Below, in pieces: positions 22,041 to 58,739 of a DNA stretch of 64,000 nucleotides; the first letter of the stretch is position 1; each line of letters opens with the position of its first letter. Position numbers and translations under genes: made by a program. The notes beneath the pieces were generated by a model that saw only the letters and a list, made by a program, of their open reading frames with translations, searched no databases and had not been told where the DNA came from. The DNA is from a phage, in sequence record PZ445451.1; one strand, 5' to 3'.

Positions 22041-23030
22041 TTATTCCCCCATAGATTTAAGAATATGTGCAATGACAGGTATAGTCCAACCGTTGCCTAA
22101 CATCTTATATGCTTGTGTGTTACTACTCACTTTAAAGTAATCATCTGGAACACCTTGTAAGCGGCAACACTCTTTAACCGTTAACTTTCTATAATGTACG
22201 CCTTCACTCAATTTTTCAAAGGCATCTAGATATTTTCCAGGTGGAATGTAAGCTAGTAGTACGTCTTTAGGCACAGTCGTGAGGCAACGAGTTTTTTCAC
22301 TGTCCTGAACTTCCAAACAATGTACCAAACGATCAGTTTTAGATGTACTACGTTTGCCATTTTCATTAATTCTACGCCCATATATTGCTGCCGGATAAAA
22401 AACCAGTTGTCTGCGACTCTTTTCAAAATACTGTTCTATATTACCACCTTTGGCATAATTTGCATCTATGCAATAAGCCTTATCTCTGTCTACAATACTA
22501 TCATCTTCAATGATATCTTGCAACACTTCATTGGTAATATTCCAAGGTTTTATTTCCCAATTGCACCAGTATAAACGTTGCCTATTCTGTGCAGTGAAAT
22601 CTGCGGAGTTAATGAATACGGGATCAACACCTAAGTAACTTGTGATCACGTTTTCCCACTCCACCTTCATCTTAACGTTCTCAAGCATGAACTTAACATT
22701 AGGGTTAAACTTTTTAATATGTTCAAGAATTTCAACATACTCAAAGAACAGTTTAGATCGCGGATCTTGAAAGTTCAAACCCTTACCAGAAGAAGAGAAG
22801 CCTTGGCACGGGCTACCACCTAACAAAAGATCAATTTCTCCCCACGGGATATTCCATTCTCTCCATTTTGTAACATCACCTAATTGAACAATATCTGGAA
22901 AATTGGCTTGGCTTTCAGCTATGGCAAATTTGTCTAATTCTGAAGCATAATACTTATCTACTTCAATACCTGCGCTTTTTAGTGCAAGCATTCCTCCTGA
23001 CATACCATCAAAAAGACTTAAAACTTTCAT
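22041..23030 (-). CDS. DNA (cytosine-5)-methyltransferase
   Basis: Motif I FDGMSGG, catalytic PC motif GGSPCQGFS, ENV motif (MLENVK). Confidence 0.85.
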   Translation of the reverse strand: MKVLSLFDGMSGGMLALKSAGIEVDKYYASELDKFAIAESQANFPDIVQLGDVTKWREWNIPWGEIDLLLGGSPCQGFSSSGKGLNFQDPRSKLFFEYVEILEHIKKFNPNVKFMLENVKMKVEWENVITSYLGVDPVFINSADFTAQNRQRLYWCNWEIKPWNITNEVLQDIIEDDSIVDRDKAYCIDANYAKGGNIEQYFEKSRRQLVFYPAAIYGRRINENGKRSTSKTDRLVHCLEVQDSEKTRCLTTVPKDVLLAYIPPGKYLDAFEKLSEGVHYRKLTVKECCRLQGVPDDYFKVSSNTQAYKMLGNGWTIPVIAHILKSMGE

Positions 23031-28009: not shown

Positions 28010-28248
28010 TCGTTGTTACGAGCACTTTCAAGAACCTTGACAACTTCTGCATACTCTACAGCTAAACCAGCACACACTTCAGCTTGTTTTGCAATTGCTT
28101 GTTTAAAGAACATAGCGATTGCAACACTCTGTGTTGTGTGAATGTTATCTGCTTTAGTTGATACATGAAGATCAAAATCTTCTTCATCAAAGGTGAGTTC
28201 CATAGTAACAATAAATTTCTCGGTCATAAAAATGCTCCTCTTAAACAA
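27997..28248 (-). CDS. hypothetical protein (83 aa)
   Basis: Track ORF. Confidence 0.5.
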   Translation of the reverse strand: MFKRSIFMTEKFIVTMELTFDEEDFDLHVSTKADNIHTTQSVAIAMFFKQAIAKQAEVCAGLAVEYAEVVKVLESARNNDWEE

Positions 28249-28750
28249 AATAGAAAGGTTGAGTTAAACCCAGCCTGTTTTTTGGGTCGTAGACGTACCA
28301 AGCATATGCTGTCTTATCAGTACCACCTGCAACAAAAGATGGTCGTTCAGCAAGAACAATCAAATTTGTTGGTGGATTCTGTTTATGGAATTCCCTTCGT
28401 TTAATAGACTCTAGGAACCCAAGACGCAACAAGTATATGCAAACGTCTGCTTCTTTTAAGCTCTTTTGCAAGAACTCAAGTGCAAGTCTGAATGGTGGAT
28501 TTGTGATTATAATATCCGGCTTAGTATGCCATTCGTGGTTAAAATAATCCTTCCCTTCTTCTAACTCACAATATTCTGATCCTTCTGGAAAATGTTGATA
28601 AATTGCAGCAGCAGCGCCTTTACACGGTTCTGCAAAAATAAAACCTTCTTCTTTAAGGTTATTAAAATCTATTACACTAAATAATGCATTTATACATTTT
28701 TGTGGAGTAGGATAGTAATCAGTTGGTGGACGATCATACTTATTTGCCAC
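28241..28750 (-). CDS. small DNA N6-adenine methyltransferase (phage Dam-like, NPPF motif)
   Basis: DYYPTP near N-terminus and IIITNPPF catalytic motif. Confidence 0.6.
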   Translation of the reverse strand: MANKYDRPPTDYYPTPQKCINALFSVIDFNNLKEEGFIFAEPCKGAAAAIYQHFPEGSEYCELEEGKDYFNHEWHTKPDIIITNPPFRLALEFLQKSLKEADVCIYLLRLGFLESIKRREFHKQNPPTNLIVLAERPSFVAGGTDKTAYAWYVYDPKNRLGLTQPFYFV

Positions 28751-31841: not shown

Positions 31842-32108
31842 TTACTCCGCAATCTGAGCCATGAATTCACGTAGTTCAGAAAAACCTCCTACGTGGGTTA
31901 GCTGTTCACCATCTTCCACAAAAATCTGAGGAAATGTGCGTGGTAGAACACCTGTTTTCTCTAAAACCAGATTCTGAATCTGATCTAAAGAATAGTCTTC
32001 ATCTAAGGTAAGGTATTTAAAATCCTGTTCACGCTGTTCCAGTAGAATCTTAGCGTTAGTGCAGAAAGGACAATTTGGTTTACCGTAGATAATAAAATTC
32101 ATTTTCAC
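31842..32108 (-). CDS. glutaredoxin-like protein (redoxin for ribonucleotide reductase)
   Basis: CPFC active site near N-terminus; 88 aa; sits in the RNR neighbourhood. Confidence 0.8.
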   Translation of the reverse strand: MKMNFIIYGKPNCPFCTNAKILLEQREQDFKYLTLDEDYSLDQIQNLVLEKTGVLPRTFPQIFVEDGEQLTHVGGFSELREFMAQIAE

Positions 32109-32935
32109 TCCTTGTTTAAAAGTATAGTTAAAGTTCTTACAATACCGCTATCAACACTTCGCGGATTTAAAGTAGGATCTGTTTTTAAATAAGATGTTGC
32201 TGGTCTGACTGCTTTGGAATTATAGGTTGAAGCAGATACAGGATTAACTGTAACAGACAAATCTATAACAAGAAATATCTTTCGTGCAAAATCATACCAA
32301 GAAATATAATCTGCACCTGCATAGTGTACAATTTTACTATTTACACCATCTTTTACAAGTTTAAAAATTGTTTCTGCAAGATCAGGTGCATAAGTAGGAC
32401 ATGATAAATGATCACATACTACATTAAATTCTTTTTGACCACCGTTGTAGCGTTCCAACATAGTTTTCAAAAAGTTATGTCCAAATTCACTATAAACAGA
32501 AGCTGTTCTGATAATAAGTGCTGTAGGACAAACTGCTTGTACTAAAGTTTCACCTAATTGTTTACTGTAACCGTAGGTGTTCAAGGGGTTTGTTTTACTC
32601 TCTTCTGTGCCAGCAACATGTCCATCAAAAACATAGTCTGTTGAAATATGTACAAACTGTATCAGTAAATCATTACATGCTTTGGCAATGTTTGTTGCAC
32701 CGTATGCATTAACATTTATACAGGTGTTAACATCTTCTTCAGCTTTATCTACTGCCGTGTAAGCCGCACAATTCACAACAACATCAGGCACGTGCTGTAC
32801 AAGACTATTCATAACATCTTTAAAGTTGGTAATGTCTATATCACTTGCTTCAATCAAAATAACATCTTCGGGCGCAACTTTTGCCAAAGACTGTCCTAAT
32901 TGACCTTTTGAACCAAAGACTAAAAATTTTGTCAA
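32105..32935 (-). CDS. rmlD: dTDP-4-dehydrorhamnose reductase
   Basis: N-terminal GSKGQLG Rossmann motif; last gene of an rmlBACD-order cluster. Confidence 0.8.
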   Translation of the reverse strand: MTKFLVFGSKGQLGQSLAKVAPEDVILIEASDIDITNFKDVMNSLVQHVPDVVVNCAAYTAVDKAEEDVNTCINVNAYGATNIAKACNDLLIQFVHISTDYVFDGHVAGTEESKTNPLNTYGYSKQLGETLVQAVCPTALIIRTASVYSEFGHNFLKTMLERYNGGQKEFNVVCDHLSCPTYAPDLAETIFKLVKDGVNSKIVHYAGADYISWYDFARKIFLVIDLSVTVNPVSASTYNSKAVRPATSYLKTDPTLNPRSVDSGIVRTLTILLNKE

Positions 32936-33486
32936 AATATGATCTCCTTTAGTGTTTTGGCTTCCTGATCTTTTTGTGACAAGATAGGTTTAAAATTAAT
33001 ATCATTAAAGATTAAATCAAAACCCCAATCTATATTGATATCTGGATCATTCCACGCAAGACTACACTCTGAAGTCGGATCGTAATATTCCGTACATTTG
33101 TATTCAAAATCAGCAATATCACTAATCACAACAAAACCATGAGCGAAACCAGGAGGAATCCAAAATTGTGTTTTATTCTTTTCAGATAAGAGAACACCTA
33201 CCCATTCTCCAAATGTTGGACTACCAACTCTAATATCTACAGCAACATCATAAACTTCACCACGAACACAACGTACTAACTTCCCTTGTGGGTTTTTCTT
33301 TTGAAAATGAAGCCCACGTAGAACTCCTCGGATAGAACGTGAATGGTTATCTTGGACAAAGTTTTGTTTACCTATGTATTGATCATATAAAGCCTGATTA
33401 AAACTTTCTAAGAAAAAGCCACGTTCATCTCCGTAAACGTCAGGTTGAATGATCAACAAATCTTCGATTTTTGTTGCTTGAATCAT
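32932..33486 (-). CDS. rmlC: dTDP-4-dehydrorhamnose 3,5-epimerase
   Basis: RGLHFQ cupin motif; ~184 aa. Confidence 0.85.
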   Translation of the reverse strand: MIQATKIEDLLIIQPDVYGDERGFFLESFNQALYDQYIGKQNFVQDNHSRSIRGVLRGLHFQKKNPQGKLVRCVRGEVYDVAVDIRVGSPTFGEWVGVLLSEKNKTQFWIPPGFAHGFVVISDIADFEYKCTEYYDPTSECSLAWNDPDINIDWGFDLIFNDINFKPILSQKDQEAKTLKEIIF

Positions 33487-33498
33487 TTAATTCCCCCT

Positions 33499-34368
33499 TT
33501 ATTTTAATTTAAGTAAATACTTACCGTAGTCTGTTTTACTTAAAACCTCTCCAGAACTTTTTACAGAGTCTAAAGTAATCCATTCATTTTTAAAAGCAAT
33601 CTCTTCCAGGCATGCAACCTTCATACCTTGTTGCTTCTCTATTGCATGAACAAATTGAGATGCTTCCATAAGACTTTCATGTGTTCCTGTATCCAGCCAA
33701 GTGAAACCTCTTCCTAGTTTACAGACACGTAAAGTCTTTTCTTTCCAGTACATCTCATTTATATCCGTAATCTCTAACTCCCCTCTAGCAGAAGGTTTAA
33801 CGCTCTTAGCTTTCTGTATAACAGAATTATCGTAAAAGTACAAGCCTGTGATTGCGTAGTTGCTTTTTGGTGTTTTTGGTTTTTCTTCAATACTCACCAC
33901 TGTACCTTCAGAATCAAACTCAACAACACCAAATCTTTCAGGATCATTTACGTGATACCCAAAAATATTAGCTCCACCATTCTTTTCAATATGTTCTTTA
34001 GCAGAATCTAAAATGCTACCAAAACTCTGACCAAAGAACAAATTATCACCTAGAACAAGTGCTACAGAATCTTCACCAATAAAGTTCTCACCAATAATAA
34101 ATGCTTCTGCTAAACCTTTTGGGCTGTTCTGTACTGCATACTGTAGGGAAATACCAAAAGAAGAACCATCACCTAAAAGATTTACAAAATTAATTTGATC
34201 TTCTGGTGTTGTAATTATTAGTATTTCCCTAATTCCAGAAAGCATTAGGACAGAGAGTGGATAATAAATCATAGGCTTATCGTAAATTGGTAATAGTTGT
34301 TTACTAACCCCTTTAGTAACTGGGTAAAGTCTTGTTCCGCTACCACCTGCTAAGATAATACCTTTCAT
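33499..34368 (-). CDS. rmlA: glucose-1-phosphate thymidylyltransferase
   Basis: [18 protein letters not shown] nucleotidyltransferase signature. Confidence 0.9.
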
Positions 34369-34376
34369 ACTCCTCC

Positions 34377-35366
34377 TTAAACTTTATTTTCCCACCACTC
34401 TTTGTTATCTACATACCAATCAATGGTTGAATAAAGTTTTTCTTCAAATGTGCCTTTAGCTTTCCACCCTAATTCCTTTTCAATCTTATAAGGATTCACT
34501 TCATATCTTAGATCATGTCCAGGTCTATCTGTAACCATCTCAATTAGGCTACAAGCATCTGTTTCAGATGGATACACCGCATCCATATAATCACAAATCA
34601 TATAGATTACATCAATATTAGTTCTAGGGTTTCTGCTCCCAATATTATATGTTTCTCCAGATTTGCCTTTAGTTACTACTAGGTGTAATGCTTCTGCGTG
34701 ATCGTCAACGTATAACCAGTCTCTTACTTGAAGACCATTGCCATAAACAGGGATTGGTTTATTCATCAAGATATTTGTTATCGTTTTAGGTATCAGTTTT
34801 TCTGGATGATGATATGCTCCAAAATTATTTGAACAATTTGTTATAACTGTCGGAATACCATAAGTACGATGCCACGCTCTTACCAAATGATCGCTTGCTG
34901 CCTTAGATGCAGCATATGGACTACTTGGCTTATAAGGATTCTGTTCTGTAAACGGATAATCCCCTTCTTCCATATCACCATACACTTCATCTGTTGAAAT
35001 ATGATGAAACATTTTAAGATTTGATTTATCTCCCATTAAACGAACAGCTTCTAGAAGATTAAATGTTCCAACAATATTTGAATTTATAAAAACACTCGGT
35101 GATGCTATTGAATTATCTACGTGACTTTCTGCTGCAAGATGCATTATATAATCTGGGTTAACATCTGCCACAATCTTAGCAGTTAACTGAGCATTTGTCA
35201 AGTCAACACGACAAAACTTTACATTAGGTGTTTCTGATAAATTTCTAGGGTCTGAAGCGTAACCCCATTTATCTATAACGTAAATATCATTCTTAGTATT
35301 TTTAGCCAGGAAACGAACTACTGCACTTCCAATAAAGCCTAAACCACCTGTTACTAAGTATTTCAT
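34377..35366 (-). CDS. rmlB: dTDP-glucose 4,6-dehydratase
   Basis: GGLGFIGS Rossmann motif, YAASKAA catalytic YxxxK, SDR-extended length. Confidence 0.9.
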
Positions 35367-36245: not shown

Positions 36246-36432
36246 ACTTGGCTACACCATTAACTATAATGTGACCGCAAGACATAACTCCTAGCCAATG
36301 ATCACCATTCTTTTTTAAACGTTTACCGTAAACATCACAGAAACCATTCTGTAATTCGGAAGCCTCATAAGAGGCTCCCTTTTCGAAAACGTCTTTGAAG
36401 TCAGAAATTAATCCAACACAAAGTAGTTTCAT
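36214..36432 (-). CDS. hypothetical protein (72 aa)
   Basis: Track ORF. Confidence 0.5.
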   Translation of the reverse strand: MKLLCVGLISDFKDVFEKGASYEASELQNGFCDVYGKRLKKNGDHWLGVMSCGHIIVNGVAKFEIIKGEKDD

Positions 36433-37517
36433 TAGAAGTCTAACTCCTCGTCATCACTTACATCTTTATTTGCTGAATTCAGTTTGTAAGCTGTAATTTG
36501 GATCTCCTGTGCTGCTGCTTGAATTTGATCTGGATTTAACCAAACATCCATCCAAGGCAGTGGACTTTTCTTCGGTGCACGGAATTTGTGTTTCATTTTC
36601 AGTCTGCGATAGATAGGCGCGGCATTGAAGTAAACCCAAAGTTTGAACAACTCTGCGTTACCACCAACGATAACCCTTCCTTCACTAAACAGATAGTCAC
36701 ACCAATCTTCCTCTTGTCCAACTACCGTATCAAGAATTTCTGTCAGAACGTCGATATTATCTTCGTATACTTTTCTCCAGACAGGATCTTTCAGCAGTGC
36801 ATCAATAATAGCATAATCCATTTTAACGTGCAATAGTTCATCCAACATAATTTTTTGAATAAGTTTAGCTGCACCTACAAACAGTTGCTGCTCTGCTAAG
36901 GCAAATGTTGCAGCAAAAGATGATATGAATTGAATGCCTTCCAGACCGATAAGTGCAATCATTCCTTTCAGAATCAGTAGACGAAGGTTATCATCCTTCT
37001 CAATCAGACCTAGAGCATATTTATGTCCTGCCTCTGCCAGATCACTCATTATCTCTTCAACTATACCCATCCTCTGGAAGATTCTTTCGTTCTCCATAAT
37101 CTGATCGATAACTTCATTTGGATTAGGGATACACTGACGAATAATTTCAGAATATGTCAAAGCGTGTAAAACTTCCATTTCTGATTGCTTCATCATCATT
37201 GCACATGCTTCGTTGTTGCTTAAAAATGGTGCAAACAAAGTGATGATTGATTTAGCAAGTGAATCATTTTCCCACTGGAAAGATAGGTTTTTGATCATAA
37301 CATCATAGTTGCTTTTAGAACAAGCTACGAAATCTTTTCGTGTCTGATCTAAGTTTACTTCGTTTTCATCCCAATCTTGCTGTTTTTGTAGTTTGTACAG
37401 GCGATGCATTTCTGGGTATGTTACGTTAATAGAATCAAAAATACCTAACTGTTCGCCCAAAAATACAGGGTAGAAACCTTCTTTGTAAGTGTCGTTGTAT
37501 AAATTAATTGCTGCCAT
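36432..37517 (-). CDS. nrdB: ribonucleotide reductase class Ia small (beta) subunit
   Basis: Ferritin-like di-iron protein with E..H motifs; immediately downstream of nrdA. Confidence 0.85.
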   Translation of the reverse strand: MAAINLYNDTYKEGFYPVFLGEQLGIFDSINVTYPEMHRLYKLQKQQDWDENEVNLDQTRKDFVACSKSNYDVMIKNLSFQWENDSLAKSIITLFAPFLSNNEACAMMMKQSEMEVLHALTYSEIIRQCIPNPNEVIDQIMENERIFQRMGIVEEIMSDLAEAGHKYALGLIEKDDNLRLLILKGMIALIGLEGIQFISSFAATFALAEQQLFVGAAKLIQKIMLDELLHVKMDYAIIDALLKDPVWRKVYEDNIDVLTEILDTVVGQEEDWCDYLFSEGRVIVGGNAELFKLWVYFNAAPIYRRLKMKHKFRAPKKSPLPWMDVWLNPDQIQAAAQEIQITAYKLNSANKDVSDDEELDF

Positions 37518-37880: not shown

Positions 37881-40142
37881 TTACATCTTACAAGACTCAC
37901 AACCGGATTCTTCATCCTCTTGAGCGAGTGAGGTTGCTGATTTTGTTCGACTATTTAGATAGTACAAAGATTTACCACCAAGTTTTGCAAACTGAAGGAT
38001 ATATTGCATTTCTGATTTAATGGATAAACGACCACCTTCCATCTTAGAATAGTCAATCCACTTGTCACATGATGCACCTTGATCTAAGAATTTAGTCAAC
38101 AGTCCATATGCTTCAGCCATATCTTTATCTGGCGTATCCCAAGCCGATTGGTAAATATCTTTTAGTTTATCGTAATCTGGCACAATAAACAAGACATTAC
38201 CTTTTTGGCTTTGTTTATAAACTATAGTATCACGTACAGGATACACAGAGTTAGTCGTATTACTTACAAGACTACTGGACTCATTCGGAGCAATAGCTGC
38301 TAATACACTATTTCGGATACCACCTTGTGCAATTATATCTTGTCGTAAACCTTCCCAATCCATTTTAAGTTTAAAATTGCCAATATCGTCTACAGCTTTA
38401 GCGTAGGTATCAATAGGCAACCATCCTTCAGGCCATTTGGTTTTATGCATCCATTCTGCATTACCTTTCTCTTTTGCCAAACGAAGAGAAGCTCTTGCTA
38501 ACCAGTAATAATGTATTTCTGCTAATTCGTGAATTAGTTTTTTGCCGTAAGGATCTGAATAAGTAACAAAATTACTTGCCAGATAATGTGCAAGGTTTGT
38601 AATACCTACACCGATAGACCTACGTGCTTTAGCAGTGATTTCGTTATGTTTAAACGGATACTGCATTGTTTCAATCACATTATCAATAGTTAGAACGGTA
38701 TAATATGCAACATCTTCATATTCTTCTGGTGTAACACGACCAGCTACAATAGAAGACAGGAAGCATAATGCCAATTCTTGGTCTTCTGTATTCTCACCTG
38801 TGAAAAGATCAGTCATATTGTGAAATGCTTTCGTAGGTAAGAAAATTTCTTGGCACAAGTTTGACTGGTAAATAACATCCTTAAACGGAGTATGCTTATT
38901 AACATTATCCGCAAAGAACATATAAATACGTCCTGTTTCTGCTCTTTGTGTAATAATTTCTGCCAGAAGATCTCGTGCTTTTACAAACTTCTTCTTAATT
39001 CGTTTGCGACTAACTTTTTCATATACTTCTTCAAACTCTTCCTCGCTTTTATAAAGCGCCTCATAGAGTTCTGGTGCTTCGTCATAACTGACTAGCATCC
39101 AATCTTTACCTTTTGCTGCACGGCGCAGGAAAGCATTGTTTACTACAATAGAGTAATCAAGTTTATCTACTCGTTTTTCACTAACAGTAGTTGGATTTTT
39201 CAAACGTACCAGATCTTCAAAATCAGGTTCCAATATTGTAAACGTTACTGTTGCACTTCCACCACGGCTTGCTTGTTTTGATGCTCCAACACTTGTTTCC
39301 ATCCATTTCAGATATGGTAAAAGACCACCGTGAACTATACGGTTGTTCTTAACACCTTGTCCTGTAGCACGGGTTTGGAGGTTAACACCAATACCTGCAT
39401 TATTCAATGTATATTCATGAGCAAGATAGTTAGCAATTGCTAAAGATTCTGCTGTATCATCTGCTCTAAACAGACAACAAGAAGCACTACCTTTAATCTT
39501 AGTACGCAAAGTTGTTAAATAAGGTGATGGTAAATTAATCTTAAGATCACTTACGTAGGTATATAGACGTTTAATGTCTTCTACTCTGCGATCTTTTGGT
39601 TGAATTTCCATTACCTTCATTGCTACACCAATGAATAAAAACTGTGGTGATTCAAAAACCACATCATTGATCGCATCTTTCACAAGATACTTATCAACCA
39701 TCTGGCGCAGTACGGAATAACCATAAGTTAGGTTTTTATCATGATTGATAATTTTACCAATCTCAATAATTTCTTCTTCTGTATAATCCATTTTCCCCCA
39801 ATAGCCTTTACTTACAGACATATTGTAGAAATCCAGGAGGGAGGGGATATTGTGATATCCCCCATGAGCCTGTTTATAGATCATACCAAGAAGTAACCGA
39901 CCTGCCATATCACTATATGCCTGATCTTTCTTATCAATACATGCTGCTATCATAGCTTTATGTAAATCACGAGTAGGCACACCGTCGTAACAACGTTTAA
40001 CAGCTTCGAGTTCAATTTCAGACCAATTTAATTTACCAGCAGCAAACTCTGACCATTTACGAAGTTTTTCTGGATTAAATTCTTCTTTCTTGCCGTTTGT
40101 TTTTGTTACATAACGGATAGATTTGCTTAGATACTGAGTCAC
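37881..40142 (-). CDS. nrdA: ribonucleotide reductase class Ia large (alpha) subunit with N-terminal ATP-cone
   Basis: 753 aa; ATP-cone-like N-terminus; catalytic Cys/Asn/Glu region; C-terminal CxxC tail. Confidence 0.9.
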   Translation of the reverse strand: MTQYLSKSIRYVTKTNGKKEEFNPEKLRKWSEFAAGKLNWSEIELEAVKRCYDGVPTRDLHKAMIAACIDKKDQAYSDMAGRLLLGMIYKQAHGGYHNIPSLLDFYNMSVSKGYWGKMDYTEEEIIEIGKIINHDKNLTYGYSVLRQMVDKYLVKDAINDVVFESPQFLFIGVAMKVMEIQPKDRRVEDIKRLYTYVSDLKINLPSPYLTTLRTKIKGSASCCLFRADDTAESLAIANYLAHEYTLNNAGIGVNLQTRATGQGVKNNRIVHGGLLPYLKWMETSVGASKQASRGGSATVTFTILEPDFEDLVRLKNPTTVSEKRVDKLDYSIVVNNAFLRRAAKGKDWMLVSYDEAPELYEALYKSEEEFEEVYEKVSRKRIKKKFVKARDLLAEIITQRAETGRIYMFFADNVNKHTPFKDVIYQSNLCQEIFLPTKAFHNMTDLFTGENTEDQELALCFLSSIVAGRVTPEEYEDVAYYTVLTIDNVIETMQYPFKHNEITAKARRSIGVGITNLAHYLASNFVTYSDPYGKKLIHELAEIHYYWLARASLRLAKEKGNAEWMHKTKWPEGWLPIDTYAKAVDDIGNFKLKMDWEGLRQDIIAQGGIRNSVLAAIAPNESSSLVSNTTNSVYPVRDTIVYKQSQKGNVLFIVPDYDKLKDIYQSAWDTPDKDMAEAYGLLTKFLDQGASCDKWIDYSKMEGGRLSIKSEMQYILQFAKLGGKSLYYLNSRTKSATSLAQEDEESGCESCKM

Positions 40143-40923: not shown

Positions 40924-41895
40924 TCACCATTTTGTATGGTTAGTCAAAAGTTGACGATGTTGAATCCAACCACAGAAGTTTCCACTCCACAAACGATGTT
41001 TACGATCCATATGTGTAATACCTTCTTCCCAAGAGGTAGGGAACGGAGGAATATTAATACCACCTTTCTGTTGTTTTAATCCTGACAAATCCATTTCTTT
41101 CATTGGCGTTGCCTGGTGTTCAAACGGAGATGCATGTACCTTTTGTCCAGACAGCAAACGAGAATAGATATCCAATGCTTTATCTTTGGTATCATTCAAT
41201 TTACGATAACTTACCTGAGCGCAACAAGAAGCTGAAATAGCTTTTGCTTCCTCTTCTGTCAACATTTTCTCGTTGGAGAAGGTTTCACCCAAGAAATAAC
41301 GGATCATACCAGTTTCTGGATCTCGATCACGATTAACGTAAGGTGTATGCCATTCCCCTGGGAAAAGAAGATATGGTTCAGAAGATTCATACAGTTTTTT
41401 AATTTCTTTAGCAAGAGCCTCAATAGTAGGATCTGCATCAGCATCTACGCGCAACCACAAGAAGTTTTCTAGCTCTGTAGTGGTTACTACAGTCTTCATA
41501 CGCTGGAATGGTTCTAGTAGGCGGTTTGCAACCTGTTTATGATAACCAGCAAGGGCAAACTCTTCTGCAAAACGTGCAGCACTTAGCGCAGCCAAGTCCC
41601 ACCATTCTTTTGCAGTGTAACCTGCATCAATCAGGGCATCGTGATCTGTGCCTTTATCTTGCATACCTGGTTGGTTAGCACCAAAACGATAAGGACGTGC
41701 TGGAGATTGCCGTACCATTTCAATTAGAGTTTTAACAGGGATAGCTCGACTTGATGCGGCATTACGAGAAAACAAACGATGCGTCATCAATTCAGAGTGA
41801 ATGATTCGAGGATATTCAAGTTCAAAGGTAACAATATCCTTACCTTCAGATGTTTGAGAGTGTGCAATAATTTTTGCTGAAATAGAGTTTGTCAT
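40924..41895 (-). CDS. thyX: flavin-dependent thymidylate synthase
   Basis: ThyX signature RHR..S.....S.R (HRLFSRNAASSRAIP). Confidence 0.85.
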   Translation of the reverse strand: MTNSISAKIIAHSQTSEGKDIVTFELEYPRIIHSELMTHRLFSRNAASSRAIPVKTLIEMVRQSPARPYRFGANQPGMQDKGTDHDALIDAGYTAKEWWDLAALSAARFAEEFALAGYHKQVANRLLEPFQRMKTVVTTTELENFLWLRVDADADPTIEALAKEIKKLYESSEPYLLFPGEWHTPYVNRDRDPETGMIRYFLGETFSNEKMLTEEEAKAISASCCAQVSYRKLNDTKDKALDIYSRLLSGQKVHASPFEHQATPMKEMDLSGLKQQKGGINIPPFPTSWEEGITHMDRKHRLWSGNFCGWIQHRQLLTNHTKW

Positions 41896-41904
41896 TATTT
41901 CTCC

Positions 41905-42495
41905 TTAAGGTAGTAAAATACTTTCAATTTCTTCCCACTGATTATCTAAACCAGTGATAATTACATTAGGAAGTTTCTTTAACTTTTCCAAGTATGGATC
42001 TTCGTAAATAGTGTTGAAATATATTTTCAACGTTTCATCTGGAAATAGGACAAGATTTTCAGCCCTATCGTCAATAGTTACGTCGCAAGGTAATAAGTAT
42101 TTTTCTTTTGTTGCGAAAAAGCCATTACCAGATGTTCTACTAAAGTCCACTTTATCTAAAGATCGTGTTACGTGTCTATATTTAGAACTAAGGTGTCCAC
42201 CCTTAGTGTGGCTTGCTATAGATATATTAGCTCCATTTGCAATTATACGATGAACAACATCTGTACTATTAGGTACTACTCCCATAGTATCATATAGATG
42301 TTGGTTATCCCAAAAAGAGTAAGGATCTACACCAAATTGCTTTTTAAAATCAGGAAAATATTTCGTAATATCATAATGCACAGTCTTATGTGCCTTATCA
42401 AATTTGATATTAGATCTACTTACCGCATTTAACCAACTCAACCATTCTACATCGGCAGGAGCTATTACTAAATCCCAATCACATACTAGACGCAT
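41905..42495 (-). CDS. hypothetical protein in the nucleotide-metabolism cluster (197 aa)
   Basis: Track ORF 41905-42609 trimmed to Met39 (GGAG RBS) to limit overlap with tdk. Confidence 0.5.
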   Translation of the reverse strand: MRLVCDWDLVIAPADVEWLSWLNAVSRSNIKFDKAHKTVHYDITKYFPDFKKQFGVDPYSFWDNQHLYDTMGVVPNSTDVVHRIIANGANISIASHTKGGHLSSKYRHVTRSLDKVDFSRTSGNGFFATKEKYLLPCDVTIDDRAENLVLFPDETLKIYFNTIYEDPYLEKLKKLPNVIITGLDNQWEEIESILLP

Positions 42496-43042
42496 TATTT
42501 CTCCTGTTATAACATTTTCTACACATTGTTTCGTAAATGTCTTCTCCTCCAATAACAATCTGTTCTTTAGAGTCGATAAGTCTAGCATTGAAAATAGCTT
42601 TTCTTCCACATTTACAAATGCTTTTCAATTCTGTAATTGAATCTGCTATGGCTAATAACCGTTCAGAACCTTCAAACAATTCTGTAGCAAAATCTGTTTT
42701 AAGCCCATAACAGAATACAGGAATATCGTAATTATCTACCACATCTCCAAGAATGTCAACCATATCTTTAGTTAGGAATTGTGATTCGTCCACAAATACT
42801 GCATCTACTGGATTTTCTTTAAGTTGTGTATAAATTTCCAGCATATCTTCTTTTGTTTTAACTGGTTTTGCTTCCTCTTTAATACCTATCCTAGAAGCAA
42901 TAGCACAACCAGACCTGGTATCTAAAGCTGAAGTTAAAAGAAGAACTTTCATATTTCTTTCTTTATAGTTCCAAGCTGTTTGTAGCAGATGTGTGCTTTT
43001 ACCACTGTTCATCGGACTATATCGGAAATAAAGTTTAGCCAT
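42479..43042 (-). CDS. tdk: thymidine kinase
   Basis: P-loop MNSGKST and C-terminal zinc-ribbon Cys pairs typical of type II thymidine kinases. Confidence 0.85.
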   Translation of the reverse strand: MAKLYFRYSPMNSGKSTHLLQTAWNYKERNMKVLLLTSALDTRSGCAIASRIGIKEEAKPVKTKEDMLEIYTQLKENPVDAVFVDESQFLTKDMVDILGDVVDNYDIPVFCYGLKTDFATELFEGSERLLAIADSITELKSICKCGRKAIFNARLIDSKEQIVIGGEDIYETMCRKCYNRRNNASSM

Positions 43043-47539: not shown

Positions 47540-47818
47540 TCAAATAACAACTACAAAATATTTTACACCATCATATTCGACAATATGATCAGGATATTTA
47601 AATCCTTTATAAGATTTACCAAACAGACTAACAGCCTCATTAGCTTTGTTTTGCGGATTACTCAACCACTGTTCTTCTGTGTAAAACTTAAATTCTGTTC
47701 TCTTACCTTCTTTTTCTAAACCAACAATTTCCTGTGTGATATCTTCAATACCTGCATTCTTCAAGGATTTGATTACCTGACGCAAACCGTGTTTAAAGAT
47801 ATCTTCTGCTGTTAACAT
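47540..47818 (-). CDS. hypothetical protein (92 aa)
   Basis: Track ORF. Confidence 0.55.
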   Translation of the reverse strand: MLTAEDIFKHGLRQVIKSLKNAGIEDITQEIVGLEKEGKRTEFKFYTEEQWLSNPQNKANEAVSLFGKSYKGFKYPDHIVEYDGVKYFVVVI

Positions 47819-47854
47819 AATACCTCCAATAAGCCCCCGAAGGGGCTTTATTTC

Positions 47855-48577
47855 TTAAGCAATGATTGCTGCGATATTAGGTTTAACAAAGGTAGATGGC
47901 TTCATAATTTTACCTTTGTCATCAAAGAATACATATACCTTTTGAACTTCGTTATATACAGCATGTACCCCAGTATAAGAACCTTCTGCACGATCTTTGC
48001 TTCGCATCTCGATAGCATCACACTCTTTTTCAAGAGCTTCAACAATATCTTTAGTTTCCCAAATAGCCAGGAGTTGCTTCTTGGTAGGATACTTGGACTC
48101 ATTGCTATTCAACACTTCACGCATAACCTTCTTCTCGTTATAAACAGAACGTACCAAAGTATCTCGTGCCATGCGTGTAAGTGTAAGAGACATTAGGGCA
48201 AATTGCAAGTCATTTTCTACCATTTTATCAAATTCAATGATAACATCGTAAATGTTTTCTGCCAGAACATCTCCTGTCGGCATTTCCAGAGCTTTATCAA
48301 CACCTTCTTTACCAAAGAACATAAATGCCAGGTAGGATGCTACCACAAAAATATCTGCTGCTGCATCAAGTAATTCAACGTGATCATTTTCCTGTGCTGC
48401 TGCTTGGAACTCTTTAAGTTCTTCTCGTACAAAAGAAAGTTGAGCTTCAAACATCTCTTGAGTAAATTCTGGAGTTACTCCACCACGTGCCTTAGCATTC
48501 CAAGCAACAATTTGATCGGCAGCTTTGATAAAGAAGCTATTGTCCACTTTTACTTGTTTGAAAAAATTCTCGATCAT
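47855..48577 (-). CDS. putative all-alpha NTP pyrophosphohydrolase (MazG-like)
   Basis: EELKEFQAA ... ELLDAAADIF acidic helices reminiscent of MazG; weak. Confidence 0.35.
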   Translation of the reverse strand: MIENFFKQVKVDNSFFIKAADQIVAWNAKARGGVTPEFTQEMFEAQLSFVREELKEFQAAAQENDHVELLDAAADIFVVASYLAFMFFGKEGVDKALEMPTGDVLAENIYDVIIEFDKMVENDLQFALMSLTLTRMARDTLVRSVYNEKKVMREVLNSNESKYPTKKQLLAIWETKDIVEALEKECDAIEMRSKDRAEGSYTGVHAVYNEVQKVYVFFDDKGKIMKPSTFVKPNIAAIIA

Positions 48578-48586
48578 TGTTTCTCC

Positions 48587-48778
48587 TTATTTAAAATATT
48601 GTTTTGTAAATTCCACCAGATATACAACAACTGCACCCATTTGTACACCTGTTGCACCGTAGACAATCATCAGACTAGCCTTCTGCCACCATGTTGGGTG
48701 AGGGAAAGTTGATGCGACAATTATACCACAAGCAACGATAGAAAGCAACACAAGAATCAAAATAACTTCAATGCTCAC
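48587..48778 (-). CDS. small integral membrane protein (63 aa)
   Basis: Two hydrophobic helices. Confidence 0.5.
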   Translation of the reverse strand: MSIEVILILVLLSIVACGIIVASTFPHPTWWQKASLMIVYGATGVQMGAVVVYLVEFTKQYFK

Positions 48779-48789
48779 TGCAACCTCCT

Positions 48790-49419
48790 TTATGTTTTAA
48801 TCTTGCCAAAATACAATACTTCAGCTTCCTGTCTTGCTGATATAGCATCTTCAATATCAATAAATGCTCCAAGACGGATATCTTTTCCTTGATAGGATAT
48901 ACGAGCAATCCATCTTTTTTCTTTCTCGCTCCACACAACACCTGTTTTACCAGAAGTGTTATTTTTCTGTTTTCGTGTATTGTATGACTGGACAGACCTT
49001 GTAGCCCAGCGACAATTTTCTTTACTGTAATCTTTTTCCGAGTCTATTCTGTCAAGAGATAAACCTTTAGGTCTATCTCCCATATCCTCAAAGAATGCAG
49101 AGAATGAATTTCTCCAAGCATCACAAACCTTAATACCACGACCACCGTAGTATTCAAAGTGAGTATTGTTTTTGTTATAGCATCTCCCTAACATAGCTTC
49201 CCACGATTTGTATGCTCCTGTTTGTGTTGTTTTCGGTCTACACTTGGAACAATAAGAACTTCTATTCTTCCTAAGTGTTTCCATAGTTACCGTGCAAATA
49301 TTACCACAATCACAAGAACAAGTAAAACGTCTTTTGCCATGTTTGTCCCTTTCAATCTCTTCTAAGACAGTATAACAACCGCATTTCTTACCTACAAGGT
49401 CTACTCTCTTGGCTCCCAT
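48790..49419 (-). CDS. HNH homing endonuclease with C-terminal AP2 DNA-binding domain
   Basis: LDRIDSEKDYSKENCRWATRSVQ (HNH_3-type) plus AP2-like GVVWSEKEKRWIARISYQGKDIRLGAF. Confidence 0.75.
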   Translation of the reverse strand: MGAKRVDLVGKKCGCYTVLEEIERDKHGKRRFTCSCDCGNICTVTMETLRKNRSSYCSKCRPKTTQTGAYKSWEAMLGRCYNKNNTHFEYYGGRGIKVCDAWRNSFSAFFEDMGDRPKGLSLDRIDSEKDYSKENCRWATRSVQSYNTRKQKNNTSGKTGVVWSEKEKRWIARISYQGKDIRLGAFIDIEDAISARQEAEVLYFGKIKT

Positions 49420-50516
49420 GTTCCCTCCACCATTTCCCGTAAACGGACACCTGTTGGTTTCGTAGGTATTCCACCATCGGAAAACTCTTCATACTCAATC
49501 TCAACAAATTTACCAATTAACATTTCGGCATTTTCTGCTTTACGATAGTTAATGGTTTCATCTGAATCCTTACGCATCAGGAATTCGACTACTTTACCAT
49601 TTTCCATCTCGCCTGTCAATACCCCGTCACCATTTTTATCACGCTTTGCACTTACCACTTTAACTTCAAGAGTCTGCCGTGGTTTACGTTTAATAACATC
49701 ATAAGAACGTTTATCAAACTCGTAAACACCTTGTGCGTTACGATACACCACACCTTCCGCTTTTTCACGTAGAGCTTTTGCATAGAATTCATCAAACTGC
49801 TCTTGGTTTTCAATGTATTCTGTATGTACTACACAAATAAGTTCATCTAAACCTTTATCTTCAACAACTTCTTTTAGAGCAGCTAAAACTTGAACCCTCT
49901 TCTCAAATGGTACAGATGGCACAGGAACATCATATACATAGTATTTAAGAAGCGGAGTGTTAGCATTATGCTTTTTCCACGCACTATTAATTTGTTGAAG
50001 GCTAAGGACACCCAAGCCAGCAAAAACTTCACCGTCAAGAGGATGACCAACTACTTCTTTAATGAAGGTTGGAATTTCTTTCCAGTGAGGTGGAAGTTTA
50101 TATACCTCCCCAGCTTTAGATAAACATTCACCTTGCATGTTAATCATTGAACGTAAACCATTCAATTTATATTGTGCATAACCTGGGAACAAAACACGAT
50201 CAGCATAATCTTTATAATCCTGACATTTCATGGGTGTGGAAGGAACATGGTTTTCAGCTTCCTCTTTTGTTTTATAATACCCATTCTTAAGTTGCTTTGT
50301 CCATTTGGCAAGAGCTTCTATTTCAGCTTGTTCTTCTGCTGTTGTTTCATTTGAGCGACCAACATTTTTAGGTTCTGCTGTATAAGATTTGCTAGTAATC
50401 TTTCCACCTAATTGACCATGAGCAACAGTTACAACACTACCTTCGGTATAGACTGACCACTGTTTAATTTTACCTGTAGAAGTTTTACCATATAATGTAG
50501 GATTAGTTTGTTTCAT
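49401..50516 (-). CDS. putative polynucleotide ligase (covalent nucleotidyltransferase, K-x-N-G-x-R motif)
   Basis: Track ORF 49401-50564 trimmed to Met17 (GGAGG RBS); YKLNGLR resembles ligase motif I KxDGxR. Confidence 0.45.
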   Translation of the reverse strand: MKQTNPTLYGKTSTGKIKQWSVYTEGSVVTVAHGQLGGKITSKSYTAEPKNVGRSNETTAEEQAEIEALAKWTKQLKNGYYKTKEEAENHVPSTPMKCQDYKDYADRVLFPGYAQYKLNGLRSMINMQGECLSKAGEVYKLPPHWKEIPTFIKEVVGHPLDGEVFAGLGVLSLQQINSAWKKHNANTPLLKYYVYDVPVPSVPFEKRVQVLAALKEVVEDKGLDELICVVHTEYIENQEQFDEFYAKALREKAEGVVYRNAQGVYEFDKRSYDVIKRKPRQTLEVKVVSAKRDKNGDGVLTGEMENGKVVEFLMRKDSDETINYRKAENAEMLIGKFVEIEYEEFSDGGIPTKPTGVRLREMVEGTWEPRE

Positions 50517-50706
50517 CTTTAACCTCCAGTTGCGAAAGAACCCATTTAGCCATTTCAATTTCACCGTGTAGTCTGCCTAGTTCATAGGCATCATCAATAT
50601 TACCACCAGTGTAATCATCCACCATAAAGTAAGGATCTTCGCTACTATTAGGTGCGTTTGCAATTCTCGTTAGTTCTTCAATAAATGTCATAGTTACCCT
50701 TACCAA
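50503..50706 (-). CDS. hypothetical protein (67 aa)
   Basis: Track ORF. Confidence 0.5.
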   Translation of the reverse strand: MVRVTMTFIEELTRIANAPNSSEDPYFMVDDYTGGNIDDAYELGRLHGEIEMAKWVLSQLEVKDETN

Positions 50707-50924
50707 TTATACACAAGAGTTTGAATCTCTTCCATCAAATCTTCAAGATCTGTATCAACGTATTCAGAAGATGTTGCCATAAAGTATGTAATCATTGTGA
50801 ACCCTTCCGAAGAAAGAGCATCAAGAATATCATTAAACATATCTTCCATTTCAGTATTCTCACCAAATGAGAATAACATTTGTTGATCTTCGCTTACACC
50901 TTTAACATAGATAGCTGTACTCAT
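50700..50924 (-). CDS. hypothetical acidic protein (74 aa)
   Basis: Track ORF. Confidence 0.5.
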   Translation of the reverse strand: MSTAIYVKGVSEDQQMLFSFGENTEMEDMFNDILDALSSEGFTMITYFMATSSEYVDTDLEDLMEEIQTLVYNW

Positions 50925-56040: not shown

Positions 56041-56934
56041 ATGAAAGTTAGTATTCTACATGGTGTTGATTGCTATGTTACTGATGTAGACGTTAAAGTG
56101 TTTACATTCTCTGGTGGAGAACAACATGTTCAATTAGATACGAATCTATCAGGTTTCAATCATGCTACAGACAGAATCTTACTCTCTTTAGAAGTAAGAT
56201 CTGCTAAAGACTTGATGACTTTGGTTATGACTAAGAATGCATTGGACAATATGCTATATCATAAACCATATTGTGTTGATTTGCTCATGTTGTATGTGCC
56301 ATATGCACGACAAGACAGAGTGTGTGAACCTGGGGAAGCATTCGGAGTTAAAGCATTTGCTTCTATAATTAATTCATTAAATTTCTCACGTGTTATAGTT
56401 GCTGATCCACATAGTGATGTTACTCCAGCAGTGTTTGACAGACTCTGTGTAATACCTCAAGAAGAGATTGCTTACGAAACTTTAAAGTGGAAGTTACGTA
56501 TGGAGAATTTTGCTCTTGTTAGTCCTGATGGTGGTGCTCTTAAGAAAATATTTAAATTATCTAAGAAAATGTCTTTAGATGTGTTCTGTGCAGAGAAGGT
56601 TAGAGATACTGCAACAGGTGCTATTGTTCGTACAGACATTTCTGTACAGGATTTCAATAAGCGTAACCTAATGATCGTAGATGATATCTGTGACGGCGGT
56701 AGAACTTTTATTGAATTGGCTAAAGTGCTACGTGCTCGTAACGCAGGTAAGATTGAGTTATATGTTACACACGGTATCTTTTCTAAAGGTCTTAAAGAGT
56801 TAAGTGAGCACTTTGACTGCATTCATTCTCTTAATGTGTGGGAAGATAACATCCAAGAAGATTCCGGTGTTCTTGTTAAGAATCAGTCGGATTTGCAACA
56901 ACAAATTGTATCTCCATACGTGTGGAATTTTTAA
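56041..56934 (+). CDS. ribose-phosphate pyrophosphokinase family protein (PRPP synthetase or Adps-type ADP-ribose pyrophosphate synthetase)
   Basis: YVPYARQDR, VSPDGG and MIVDDICDGGRT match the Prs ribose-5-P loop and PRPP-binding motif. Confidence 0.85.
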   Translation: MKVSILHGVDCYVTDVDVKVFTFSGGEQHVQLDTNLSGFNHATDRILLSLEVRSAKDLMTLVMTKNALDNMLYHKPYCVDLLMLYVPYARQDRVCEPGEAFGVKAFASIINSLNFSRVIVADPHSDVTPAVFDRLCVIPQEEIAYETLKWKLRMENFALVSPDGGALKKIFKLSKKMSLDVFCAEKVRDTATGAIVRTDISVQDFNKRNLMIVDDICDGGRTFIELAKVLRARNAGKIELYVTHGIFSKGLKELSEHFDCIHSLNVWEDNIQEDSGVLVKNQSDLQQQIVSPYVWNF

Positions 56935-57005
56935 ATAATACGTGTTGACAATAGGGAGTATGCTTAGTAAGATACTCCCACACTAACAAACAAGGAGACA
57001 TAACT

Positions 57006-58739
57006 ATGAATATTTTTGCACCTTTTGCTACTGATTGGTATAAACCTGGTCACAAGCAGATGTACAACCAAAATACAAAACTCATTTTCTCTAACTTAAC
57101 TCCTCGTAATGATAAAAACTTTGCAAACTACGCAGAACGTGAAGCACGTGGTGTAATTGTTTTAGGTATTCGTCGAGCAGTTACTGATGCTCTTGTAACT
57201 ATGTGGGATAGCTTCTTTAAAATGTCTCGTAGTGCAGCAGTAAATAAGTTTTATCGTATGTCTAAAAATGCATTAGGTGCTTCTGCTCCTTCTGCTGAAT
57301 GTTGGGGAGAATTGCACGATTTAGGTTATCTTCCGCTGGAAGTTCGATCTCTGCCAGAAGGTGTTTTGTGTCCTATTGGTGTTCCTGTGTTTACTGTGCA
57401 TAATACTTTAGAAAAATTCTTTTGGTTAACTAACTATGTGGAAACACTATTGTCAGATGAAACTTGGAAGACAATGACTAATGCTACAGCAGCTTTTCAG
57501 TATAAGCGTATTGCTATGGCATATGCGATGGCAACGTGTGATAATATTGATCACGTTAACTTCCAGTGTCATGATTTTAGCCTACGTGGTTTAAGTAATA
57601 TCGAAGATGGTTATAAGAGTGGTATCGCTCATTTGGCATCTTTCACAGGAACAGATAACATTCTGGCTATTGAGACTGTGCATGATTATTATGGTATTGA
57701 TTATGATCAGTTTGTTGCAGGTTCTATTCCGGCAACAGAACATTCAGTAGCAACGACTAACATTGGAGCTATTGTTGAAGATCTGAAGAAACATTTCCCA
57801 CATCTTAAAGATGATGTTGATGGGCTTCGTTATGTAGCAGAGAAAGAGTTTCTTCGCCGCTATATTGAAGAAATTGTTCCAGAAGGTTTTTGTTCATATG
57901 TAGCAGATTCTTATGATTACTGGGCTGTCTTGACTCGCATTCTGGTAGAATTGAAAGAATCCATTATGTCACGAAATGGTCGTCTTGTTATTCGTCCAGA
58001 TTCAGGAGATCCGGTTAAAGTTGTTGCAGGATACAATGTTGAATCTTTTGCTAACTATGAAGACCTTTTAAATAATGGTATTGCTACAGCCACTGAAGTA
58101 GTTCATTTGGTTGATGTTAATAAATATTACAATGTTCTTCAGGATTGCAGTGTTGCTGATTGTATTGATGAAACTTATGAGATTCCTTATTGTGAAGCAG
58201 TAGGTTCTATTCAAATCCTTTGGGAAGTGTTTGGTGGTACTATCAACCGAAAAGGCTACAAGGTTCTTGATCAGCACATCGGTATGATTTATGGTGATTC
58301 TATTACTGTTGAACGAGAACACGAGATCTTACGCCGACTGAAGAAGAAAGGTTTTGCAGCTTCCAATATTGTATTTGGTGTTGGTAGTTATACTTATCAG
58401 TTCAATACACGAGATACTTTTGGTTTTGCTGTTAAAGCAACAGGTAGTATCATCGGTGAACACGAAATTTTGGTAAGTAAGGAGCCTAAAACTGATCCTG
58501 GTAAACGATCTGCAAAAGGTTTTATTAAGGTTGTTAAGGATACAAATGGTAAACTTTCTCTTGTGGATAATCTTTCTTTTAAAGATATCCAAGATGAAGA
58601 CAATGAGTTAAAAGTTATCTTCAGGGATGGTACGGTTATTACACCACAAGTAGAAGGACGTGATGAAACATTTACTGATATCCGTAACCGTGTTGATGTA
58701 GAGGTTCTTCGTACTATGGGAACCATCCAGGTTGACTAA
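57006..58739 (+). CDS. nicotinamide phosphoribosyltransferase family protein (NadV/NAMPT or Namat-type)
   Basis: TDWYKPGH, PEGVLCPIGVPVFTVHNT, FWLTNYVETLL, HDFSLRGLSN and FTGTDNILA align with conserved NAMPT blocks. Confidence 0.85.
   Translation: MNIFAPFATDWYKPGHKQMYNQNTKLIFSNLTPRNDKNFANYAEREARGVIVLGIRRAVTDALVTMWDSFFKMSRSAAVNKFYRMSKNALGASAPSAECWGELHDLGYLPLEVRSLPEGVLCPIGVPVFTVHNTLEKFFWLTNYVETLLSDETWKTMTNATAAFQYKRIAMAYAMATCDNIDHVNFQCHDFSLRGLSNIEDGYKSGIAHLASFTGTDNILAIETVHDYYGIDYDQFVAGSIPATEHSVATTNIGAIVEDLKKHFPHLKDDVDGLRYVAEKEFLRRYIEEIVPEGFCSYVADSYDYWAVLTRILVELKESIMSRNGRLVIRPDSGDPVKVVAGYNVESFANYEDLLNNGIATATEVVHLVDVNKYYNVLQDCSVADCIDETYEIPYCEAVGSIQILWEVFGGTINRKGYKVLDQHIGMIYGDSITVEREHEILRRLKKKGFAASNIVFGVGSYTYQFNTRDTFGFAVKATGSIIGEHEILVSKEPKTDPGKRSAKGFIKVVKDTNGKLSLVDNLSFKDIQDEDNELKVIFRDGTVITPQVEGRDETFTDIRNRVDVEVLRTMGTIQVD

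Follow-up and report, generated by a model that had tools for sequence, protein, structure and literature searches.

A predicted dTDP-L-rhamnose pathway in phi92-like coliphages and its probable link to phage-encoded glycosyltransferases

The DNA considered here is a 64,000-nucleotide stretch of a phage genome (sequence record PZ445451.1; hereafter the window, with positions counted from its first letter), in which a first-pass annotation had recognized, at 32105-35366, four consecutive genes for the synthesis of deoxythymidine diphosphate (dTDP)-L-rhamnose. The four genes proved to be intact, contiguous open reading frames (ORFs) on the minus strand, with no internal stops and in the transcription order B-A-C-D. 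They comprise rmlB, for dTDP-D-glucose 4,6-dehydratase (34377..35366; 329 aa, ATG start, bas60_0213), rmlA, for glucose-1-phosphate thymidylyltransferase (33499..34368; 289 aa, ATG start, bas60_0212), rmlC, for dTDP-4-dehydrorhamnose 3,5-epimerase (32932..33486; 184 aa, ATG start, bas60_0211), and rmlD, for dTDP-4-dehydrorhamnose reductase (32105..32935; 276 aa, TTG start, bas60_0210). Each gene has a Shine-Dalgarno sequence, among them GGAAGGAG for rmlB, AAGGAGG for rmlA and AAGGAG, 9 nt upstream, for rmlD. The TTG start of rmlD overlaps the stop of rmlC (TTGA), so that the two genes share 4 nt, and the glutaredoxin gene grx, directly downstream of rmlD (31842..32108, minus strand; PF00462, E 9e-12), overlaps the rmlD stop by 4 nt in the same direction of transcription.

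Enzyme functions were assigned using NCBIfam equivalog cut-offs, and Pfam matches agreed. RmlB (TIGR01181, 443 bits versus a cut-off of 365), RmlA (TIGR01207, 474 versus 361) and RmlC (TIGR01221, 260 versus 156) passed, while RmlD passed narrowly (TIGR01214, 254 versus 224). The closest solved structures were Salmonella enterica enzymes for RmlB (1G1A, E 6e-117), RmlA (1IIM, E 5e-125) and RmlC (1DZR, E 6.5e-64); for RmlD they were the Firmicute-type 1VL0 and 3SC6 (E ∼3e-44), with S. enterica 1KBZ reaching just 6e-35. The motifs quoted in the first-pass annotation (GGLGFIGS, YxxxK, GGSGTRLYP and RGLHFQ) are present, and catalytic residues, read from alignments to 1IIM, 1G1A, 1DZR and 1VL0 together with a residue check, align with those of the solved enzymes: GGLGFIGS (GxxGxxG), T125-D126-E127 and Y151xxxK155 in RmlB; the G-G-x-G-T-R motif, D108, K163 and D226 in RmlA; RGLH60FQ, K69, Y129 and D173 in RmlC; and T99 and Y121xxxK125 in RmlD. 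Judged by sequence, the four genes appear to encode an intact RmlA-D pathway to dTDP-L-rhamnose, whose enzymes would be active.

The flanks named in the first-pass annotation were also borne out. On the side opposite grx lie nrdB (36432-37517), nrdA (37881-40142), a thyX-like gene (40924-41895, minus strand, 323 aa) and a thymidine kinase gene, tdk (42479-43042), with five small ORFs of unknown function between nrdB and rmlB. A scan for promoters and terminators over 29-44 kb returned sites no commoner than in shuffled sequence, and the operon is not delimited thereby. The ThyX-like protein is long and divergent, scoring just 36.9 bits on PF02511, and the adjoining 234-aa ORF (41905-42609) matches the NT5C deoxynucleotidase family below threshold. 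Further along, on the plus strand, a gene resembling phosphoribosyl pyrophosphate (PRPP) synthetase (297 aa; Pribosyltran, Pribosyl_synth) precedes a NAMPT/NAPRTase-like gene (577 aa), the two together spanning 56041-58739; we take this pair to resemble NARP1, a phage NAD+ reconstitution pathway that counters NAD-depleting defence.

The rml region (32105-35366) is 100% identical to record positions 119205-122466 of Escherichia phage PaulScherrer (BASEL collection Bas60, MZ501100.1), a virulent, ‘phi92-like’ Escherichia coli phage of the genus Justusliebigvirus, subfamily Stephanstirmvirinae. The window corresponds to record positions 87101-150425 followed by 1-675, and thus spans the ends of the record; a single differing base, at window position 48652, was found among 43,262 bases compared. 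The DNA of the cluster matches 56 phage records at 95-100% identity (54 of them at 95-99%, phi92 included). Two of the five records labelled as Campylobacter phages, A150 and A145 (MG065639 and MG065645), have 98.4% DNA identity to E. coli phi92-like/phapecocta-like phages across the rml region, and the protein identities of the other three, A110a, C3 and B15 (MG065689, MG065656 and MG065650), likewise match such coliphages. The Campylobacter host labels of all five are probably wrong.

As a finding, the cluster is less fresh than the first-pass annotation implied. All four genes are already named in GenBank (bas60_0210-0213), and the complete dTDP-rhamnose pathway, with its ‘peculiar’ place in the DNA-metabolism region, was described by Olsen 2020, who speculated that it serves the glycosylation of hydroxymethylated nucleotides (PMC7552041). 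According to Maffei 2021, the phages are ‘exceptionally susceptible’ to restriction-modification despite putative dTDP glycosylation machinery (PMC8594841), and a 2024 paper restated the idea of a ‘rhamnose modification’ with the same caveat (PMC10844046). A literature search found no published test of the function of the cluster, and a paper on an evolution experiment with Bas60 reports no Bas60 changes and leaves the rml and glycosyltransferase genes unmentioned. The rml cluster of phi92-like phages is therefore already annotated and published, and the genes per se are neither new nor surprising for specialists. What is added here is the division of the cluster into core and accessory parts, the co-occurrence with glycosyltransferases, and the arguments against diversion of the nucleotide pool and against bulk DNA modification.

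The cluster is conserved well beyond its closest relatives. The gene order nrdA-nrdB-small ORFs-rmlB-rmlA-rmlC-rmlD-grx-lysozyme-phoH is kept in Phapecoctavirus ESCO5 and Citrobacter phage Tr1, and the rmlD-grx junction is the same in ESCO5, ESCO37, Tr1 and KP13-26. Across phage genera, identities to the PaulScherrer proteins were 63-79% for RmlB, 71-77% for RmlA, 63-78% for RmlC and 55-58% for RmlD, with invariant catalytic columns. At closer range, comparison of rmlB with that of phage Eryne gives 16 synonymous differences and a single non-synonymous one, and many relatives with ∼98.5% DNA identity have an RmlC protein that is 100% identical. The GC content at third codon positions (GC3) is 0.20-0.23, and overall GC is 0.349 compared with 0.370 for the window. 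In E. coli, DNA identity to the cluster peaks at 64-66%, over less than 80% of its length; among the matches listed, none extends into rmlD, whose nearest named cellular homologues are at most ∼46% identical and belong to Bacteroidota and other non-enteric bacteria. Because of the synteny, the protein identities with invariant catalytic columns, the synonymous excess, the GC3 and the low E. coli match, the rml genes are taken to be long-resident phage genes under purifying selection rather than a recent cassette. One candidate for an unrelated rml-carrying phage, ‘Acinetobacter phage MD-2021a’ (CAKLQF020000003.1; L013), was rejected: this 254-kb contig, which carries rml genes in an outer-core-like locus, is bacterial chromosome (glnE, ilvE, aspS) and not phage.

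The four genes are not retained equally. Phylogenetic profiles were obtained by tblastn against a phage collection, counting records labelled Escherichia and Klebsiella. RmlC (106/8, Escherichia/Klebsiella), RmlD (107/8) and GT3, one of the glycosyltransferases introduced below (107/9), gave nearly the same counts; for RmlA and RmlB the Escherichia counts were 88 and 89, and no Klebsiella category was listed for either. Only rmlC-rmlD occupies the syntenic site in ESCO37 (Phapecoctavirus) and Klebsiella phage KP13-26. In Eryne (Justusliebigvirus), 557 bp are deleted in frame between direct copies of the 12-nt repeat TTGAAGAAAAAC, which joins RmlB residues 1-306 to RmlA residues 160-289. The N-terminal 159 residues of RmlA are thereby gone, and the fusion is predicted to destroy its active site; all four glycosyltransferase genes of Eryne are intact. 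Roughly 18 further Escherichia phage records also lack rmlA. These losses of rmlA or rmlB are clean or microhomology deletions, and rmlC and rmlD were kept in the relatives examined. Thus, the conserved unit appears to be rmlC and rmlD with the glycosyltransferase genes, rather than the full pathway.

The missing steps can be found in the host. DNA resembling rmlB/rmlA was detected in all 5426 of 5426 complete E. coli genomes, at a median of two places per genome. RffG and RffH are present in all E. coli strains, and RfbB and RfbA in many, in the pathways for enterobacterial common antigen (ECA) and O-antigen, respectively; the median of two fits this combination. Every E. coli genome can therefore supply the product of RmlA and RmlB. 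By this reasoning rmlC and rmlD would be the indispensable part of the phage pathway, and rmlB and rmlA would raise supply.

The absence of a glycosyltransferase near the cluster, stated in the first-pass annotation, held for the 64-kb window, where tblastn found no such gene, but not for the genome. The search of the remaining genome that the annotation had called for revealed four adjacent glycosyltransferase genes outside the window (bas60_0048-0051, record 47580-50756, minus strand; collectively GT1 to GT4). They adjoin the DNA primase/helicase and DNA polymerase genes, lie ∼69 kb from the rml cluster, and match glycosyltransferase PHROGs with E values of 1e-79 to 1e-149. GT1 and GT2 are paralogues, both matching PHROG 7162 and giving weak Glyco_trans_1-type Pfam matches, while GT3 and GT4 hit other glycosyltransferase PHROGs. 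All four proteins lack transmembrane segments (the top 19-residue hydropathy is 1.21).

Fold comparisons used modelled structures of database homologues, 78% identical to GT3 and 99% identical to GT1. The GT3-homologue model (pLDDT 88) has a GT-A fold and is nearest, among solved structures, to GlfT2, polypeptide GalNAc-T1, K4CP, beta4GalT7 and TarP; its list also holds the dTDP-rhamnose-using RmlT of Listeria monocytogenes. The GT1-homologue model (pLDDT 95) has a GT-B fold of the GT4 type, with PglA, BshA and PimA as neighbours and the T4 alpha- and beta-glucosyltransferases ranked lower. These generic GT-A and GT-B neighbours identified neither donor nor acceptor for the two proteins, and sequence searches of solved structures (with GT3, and with GT3 and GT1 profiles) returned no or merely marginal matches. 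GT3 has a weak match to PF20691 (TET-associated glycosyltransferase; 23.3 bits versus a cut-off of 27.5, E 7e-5) and a short one to the PHROG for beta-glucosyl-HMC-alpha-glucosyltransferase (HMC, hydroxymethylcytosine). The gene neighbourhood of a Burkholderia GT1 homologue was uninformative. A distant phage contig of 135 kb has an NDP-hexose 4,6-dehydratase-like gene directly next to a GT3 homologue, upstream of primase and polymerase genes, and this arrangement independently links 6-deoxyhexose chemistry to the GT3 group.

A few genes from the glycosyltransferases, on their high-coordinate side, PaulScherrer also carries a tellurite-resistance-type neighbourhood (record ∼52.7-63.7 kb; L004 2762-13670; minus strand) that is unusual cargo for a virulent coliphage, with TerD, TelA, TerC, a Macro domain, a ComF-like phosphoribosyltransferase (PF15610), a HAD hydrolase and an AAA ATPase. 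Also outside the window (L004 30610-32565, plus strand), a 467-aa protein with four CapR domains and T5orf172 is encoded beside a 183-aa NADAR-domain protein, which the PaulScherrer annotation calls a YbiA-like N-glycosidase and that of Eryne a DNA methyltransferase.

Taken together, the rml cluster is most probably the donor pathway for the phage glycosyltransferases, which would make a rhamnose-containing glycan. The suggestion in the first-pass annotation of a sugar donor for modifying something thus gains support from the four glycosyltransferase genes and from the co-occurrence of GT3 with rmlC and rmlD. E. coli hosts make dTDP-4-keto-6-deoxy-D-glucose for ECA via RffH and RffG. RmlC and RmlD, transcribed leftward with RmlA, RmlB and the nucleotide-metabolism genes, would tap this host pool and turn it into dTDP-L-rhamnose; rmlB and rmlA would give a dispensable boost that frees the supply from host flux. 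The product of the pathway would then be the donor for the four glycosyltransferases encoded beside the primase/helicase and polymerase genes, which would build the glycan on some acceptor. From gene content and conservation we infer that the enzymes are active, that the glycosyltransferases use the rml product, and what kind of acceptor they serve.

Several observations weigh against this interpretation. The connection between rml and glycosyltransferase genes across ∼69 kb rests on co-occurrence in one subfamily and could reflect shared ancestry, and the phylogenetic profile covers one of the four glycosyltransferases, GT3. Specificity for dTDP-rhamnose could be assigned to none of the four from sequence or fold. 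The dispensability of rmlA and rmlB in culture may mean that the whole module is useful only conditionally. Lastly, because RmlD passes its cut-off narrowly and diverges from enterobacterial RmlD, the C4 stereochemistry of the product may be that of either L-rhamnose or 6-deoxy-L-talose.

With respect to the acceptor, a protein, virion or cell-envelope target is more likely than DNA. We tentatively propose, as one real possibility among several, that this split, self-supplied system places a rhamnose-containing glycan on the phage's own virion proteins or another non-DNA target. If true, no earlier case of virion or protein glycosylation would be known from a phage of Gram-negative bacteria with its own nucleotide-sugar pathway, and such a system could be relevant to the very broad host range of these phages or to how the immune system recognizes them in phage therapy. 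The phage group has an exceptionally broad host range and is present in therapy collections, and the function of the module is an acknowledged question in the literature; Eryne, ESCO37 and the Klebsiella phages without rmlA/rmlB offer ready-made natural controls.

A somewhat doubtful alternative is that the glycosyltransferases use dTDP-rhamnose to remodel lipopolysaccharide, O-antigen, ECA or another surface glycan of the host, which could block superinfection or stop progeny from being trapped on debris. These phages do recognize surface glycans (e.g. the NGR glycan and O-antigen), the nearest folds of GT1 include enzymes with lipid-linked or envelope acceptors (PglA, WlaC, PimA, WbnH and WaaG), and RmlC and RmlD draw on the ECA precursor. 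However, the lack of transmembrane segments in all four glycosyltransferases is at odds with such a role, flippase, polymerase, ligase and GtrA/GtrB-like genes are absent from the annotations, and old surface glycan would outlast the short lytic cycle.

The published speculation that dTDP-rhamnose is moved onto phage DNA bases, analogous to the glucosyl-HMC of T4 (proposed in PMC7552041, restated in PMC10844046), appears unlikely. The location of both the rml and glycosyltransferase loci within nucleotide-metabolism and replication modules is consistent with it, as are the PF20691 and HMC-glucosyltransferase matches of GT3; the matches of the glycosyltransferases to DNA-glycosyltransferases are nevertheless sub-threshold or ranked behind many non-DNA enzymes. 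A C5-cytosine DNA methyltransferase encoded in the genome (window 22041-23030, minus strand; PF00145, E 4e-44) also speaks in its favour. Against it, PaulScherrer and relatives are ‘exceptionally susceptible’ to restriction-modification (PMC8594841). Moreover, no dCMP/dUMP hydroxymethylase, TET/JBP or other 2-oxoglutarate (2OG) oxygenase was recognized in the Phold-based annotation of Eryne or in Pfam scans of ∼40 PaulScherrer ORFs, which left out small ORFs and structural genes and returned no match at all for several; because those ORFs have no recognizable domain, a novel base-hydroxylating enzyme is conceivable. The ThyX-like thymidylate synthase and thymidine kinase point to canonical thymine, and we know of no DNA modification made from a dTDP-sugar. 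Given the restriction sensitivity, the failure to recognize a hydroxymethylase or TET/JBP enzyme, and the sub-threshold or low-ranked DNA-glycosyltransferase matches, bulk DNA modification is unlikely, and the DNA bases that the first-pass annotation had listed as a target are disfavoured. As a separate observation, the window also encodes a putative N6-adenine methyltransferase (28241-28750, minus strand), and the genome holds several more methyltransferase-like genes; methyltransferase genes are thus present, yet the phage is reported to be restriction-sensitive.

The other use envisaged in the first-pass annotation, diversion of the dTTP/dTDP pool, with the cluster acting as a sink or buffer and not as a donor pathway, finds its rationale in the position among nrdAB, thyX, tdk and grx, but is highly improbable, since it is the step using dTTP that these phages can do without. 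RmlA, the sole step consuming dTTP, has been lost repeatedly (in Eryne, ESCO37, KP13-26 and the roughly 18 further Escherichia records), while rmlC and rmlD, neither of which involves dTTP, persist in the relatives examined, and the glycosyltransferase genes offer the product an obvious use. Equally remote is the view of the cluster as a recent acquisition from the host, neutral or without function: the enterobacterial likeness of RmlA, RmlB and RmlC and the dispensability of rmlA and rmlB in culture would suit it, but it is already contradicted by the conservation data, namely the low and partial E. coli DNA match, the phage-like composition, the position shared between genera whose proteins are 55-79% identical and whose catalytic residues do not vary, and the synonymous excess relative to Eryne.

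Among known systems, the bacterial rfb/rml operon (S. enterica/E. coli rfbBDAC; RffH, RffG) shares all four enzyme families and their catalytic residues with the phage cluster, and its S. enterica enzymes are nearest to phage RmlA, RmlB and RmlC among solved structures. It differs in several respects: the phage order is B-A-C-D, the genes lie between nrdAB and grx instead of in an O-antigen cluster, no wzx, wzy or glycosyltransferase gene adjoins them, RmlD is not of the enterobacterial type (1KBZ, E 6e-35), and the DNA is ∼65% identical to that of E. coli. With phi92, phAPEC8 and other Stephanstirmvirinae (PMC7552041, PMC8594841) the feature is identical, with no difference. Serotype conversion of the gtrABC type does not describe the phage genes, as no hydrophobic glycosyltransferase segment was found and no gtrA/gtrB-like gene is annotated. 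Like the T-even glucosyl-HMC system, PaulScherrer encodes glycosyltransferases alongside replication genes, with which those of T-even phages are expressed; that system, in contrast, needs a dCMP hydroxymethylase, uses host UDP-glucose and confers restriction resistance, and none of the three holds in PaulScherrer.

Two further comparisons concern viruses that glycosylate their own particles. Virion glycosylation has been described for mycobacteriophages Che8, Corndog and Myrna (Freeman 2023, as cited in PMC11256854 and PMC12363180). As in the Che8 type, the glycosyltransferase cluster of PaulScherrer lies outside the structural module, and beyond Stephanstirmvirinae the phage collection yielded only distant relatives of GT3 (E 1e-6 to 1e-8), all of them glycosyltransferases of cluster-F-type mycobacteriophages, which occupy the right-end locus where the virion-glycosylating enzymes of Che8 lie. 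Pairwise BLASTP of GT1, GT3 and GT4 against Che8 gp108-110 gave nothing significant, and membership of the Che8 type is not claimed. Virion glycans are a feature of the Che8 type and a proposal for the phi92-like phages; to our knowledge, mycobacteriophages have no sugar-nucleotide pathway of their own. Giant viruses do: Mimivirus makes UDP-L-rhamnose and chloroviruses make GDP-fucose and GDP-rhamnose, which are used with viral glycosyltransferases on capsids and fibrils. Although theirs are UDP- and GDP-sugars in eukaryote hosts, and the likeness drawn here is one of function, they share with the phi92-like phages a virus-encoded 6-deoxyhexose donor pathway, as predicted here, together with several viral glycosyltransferases.

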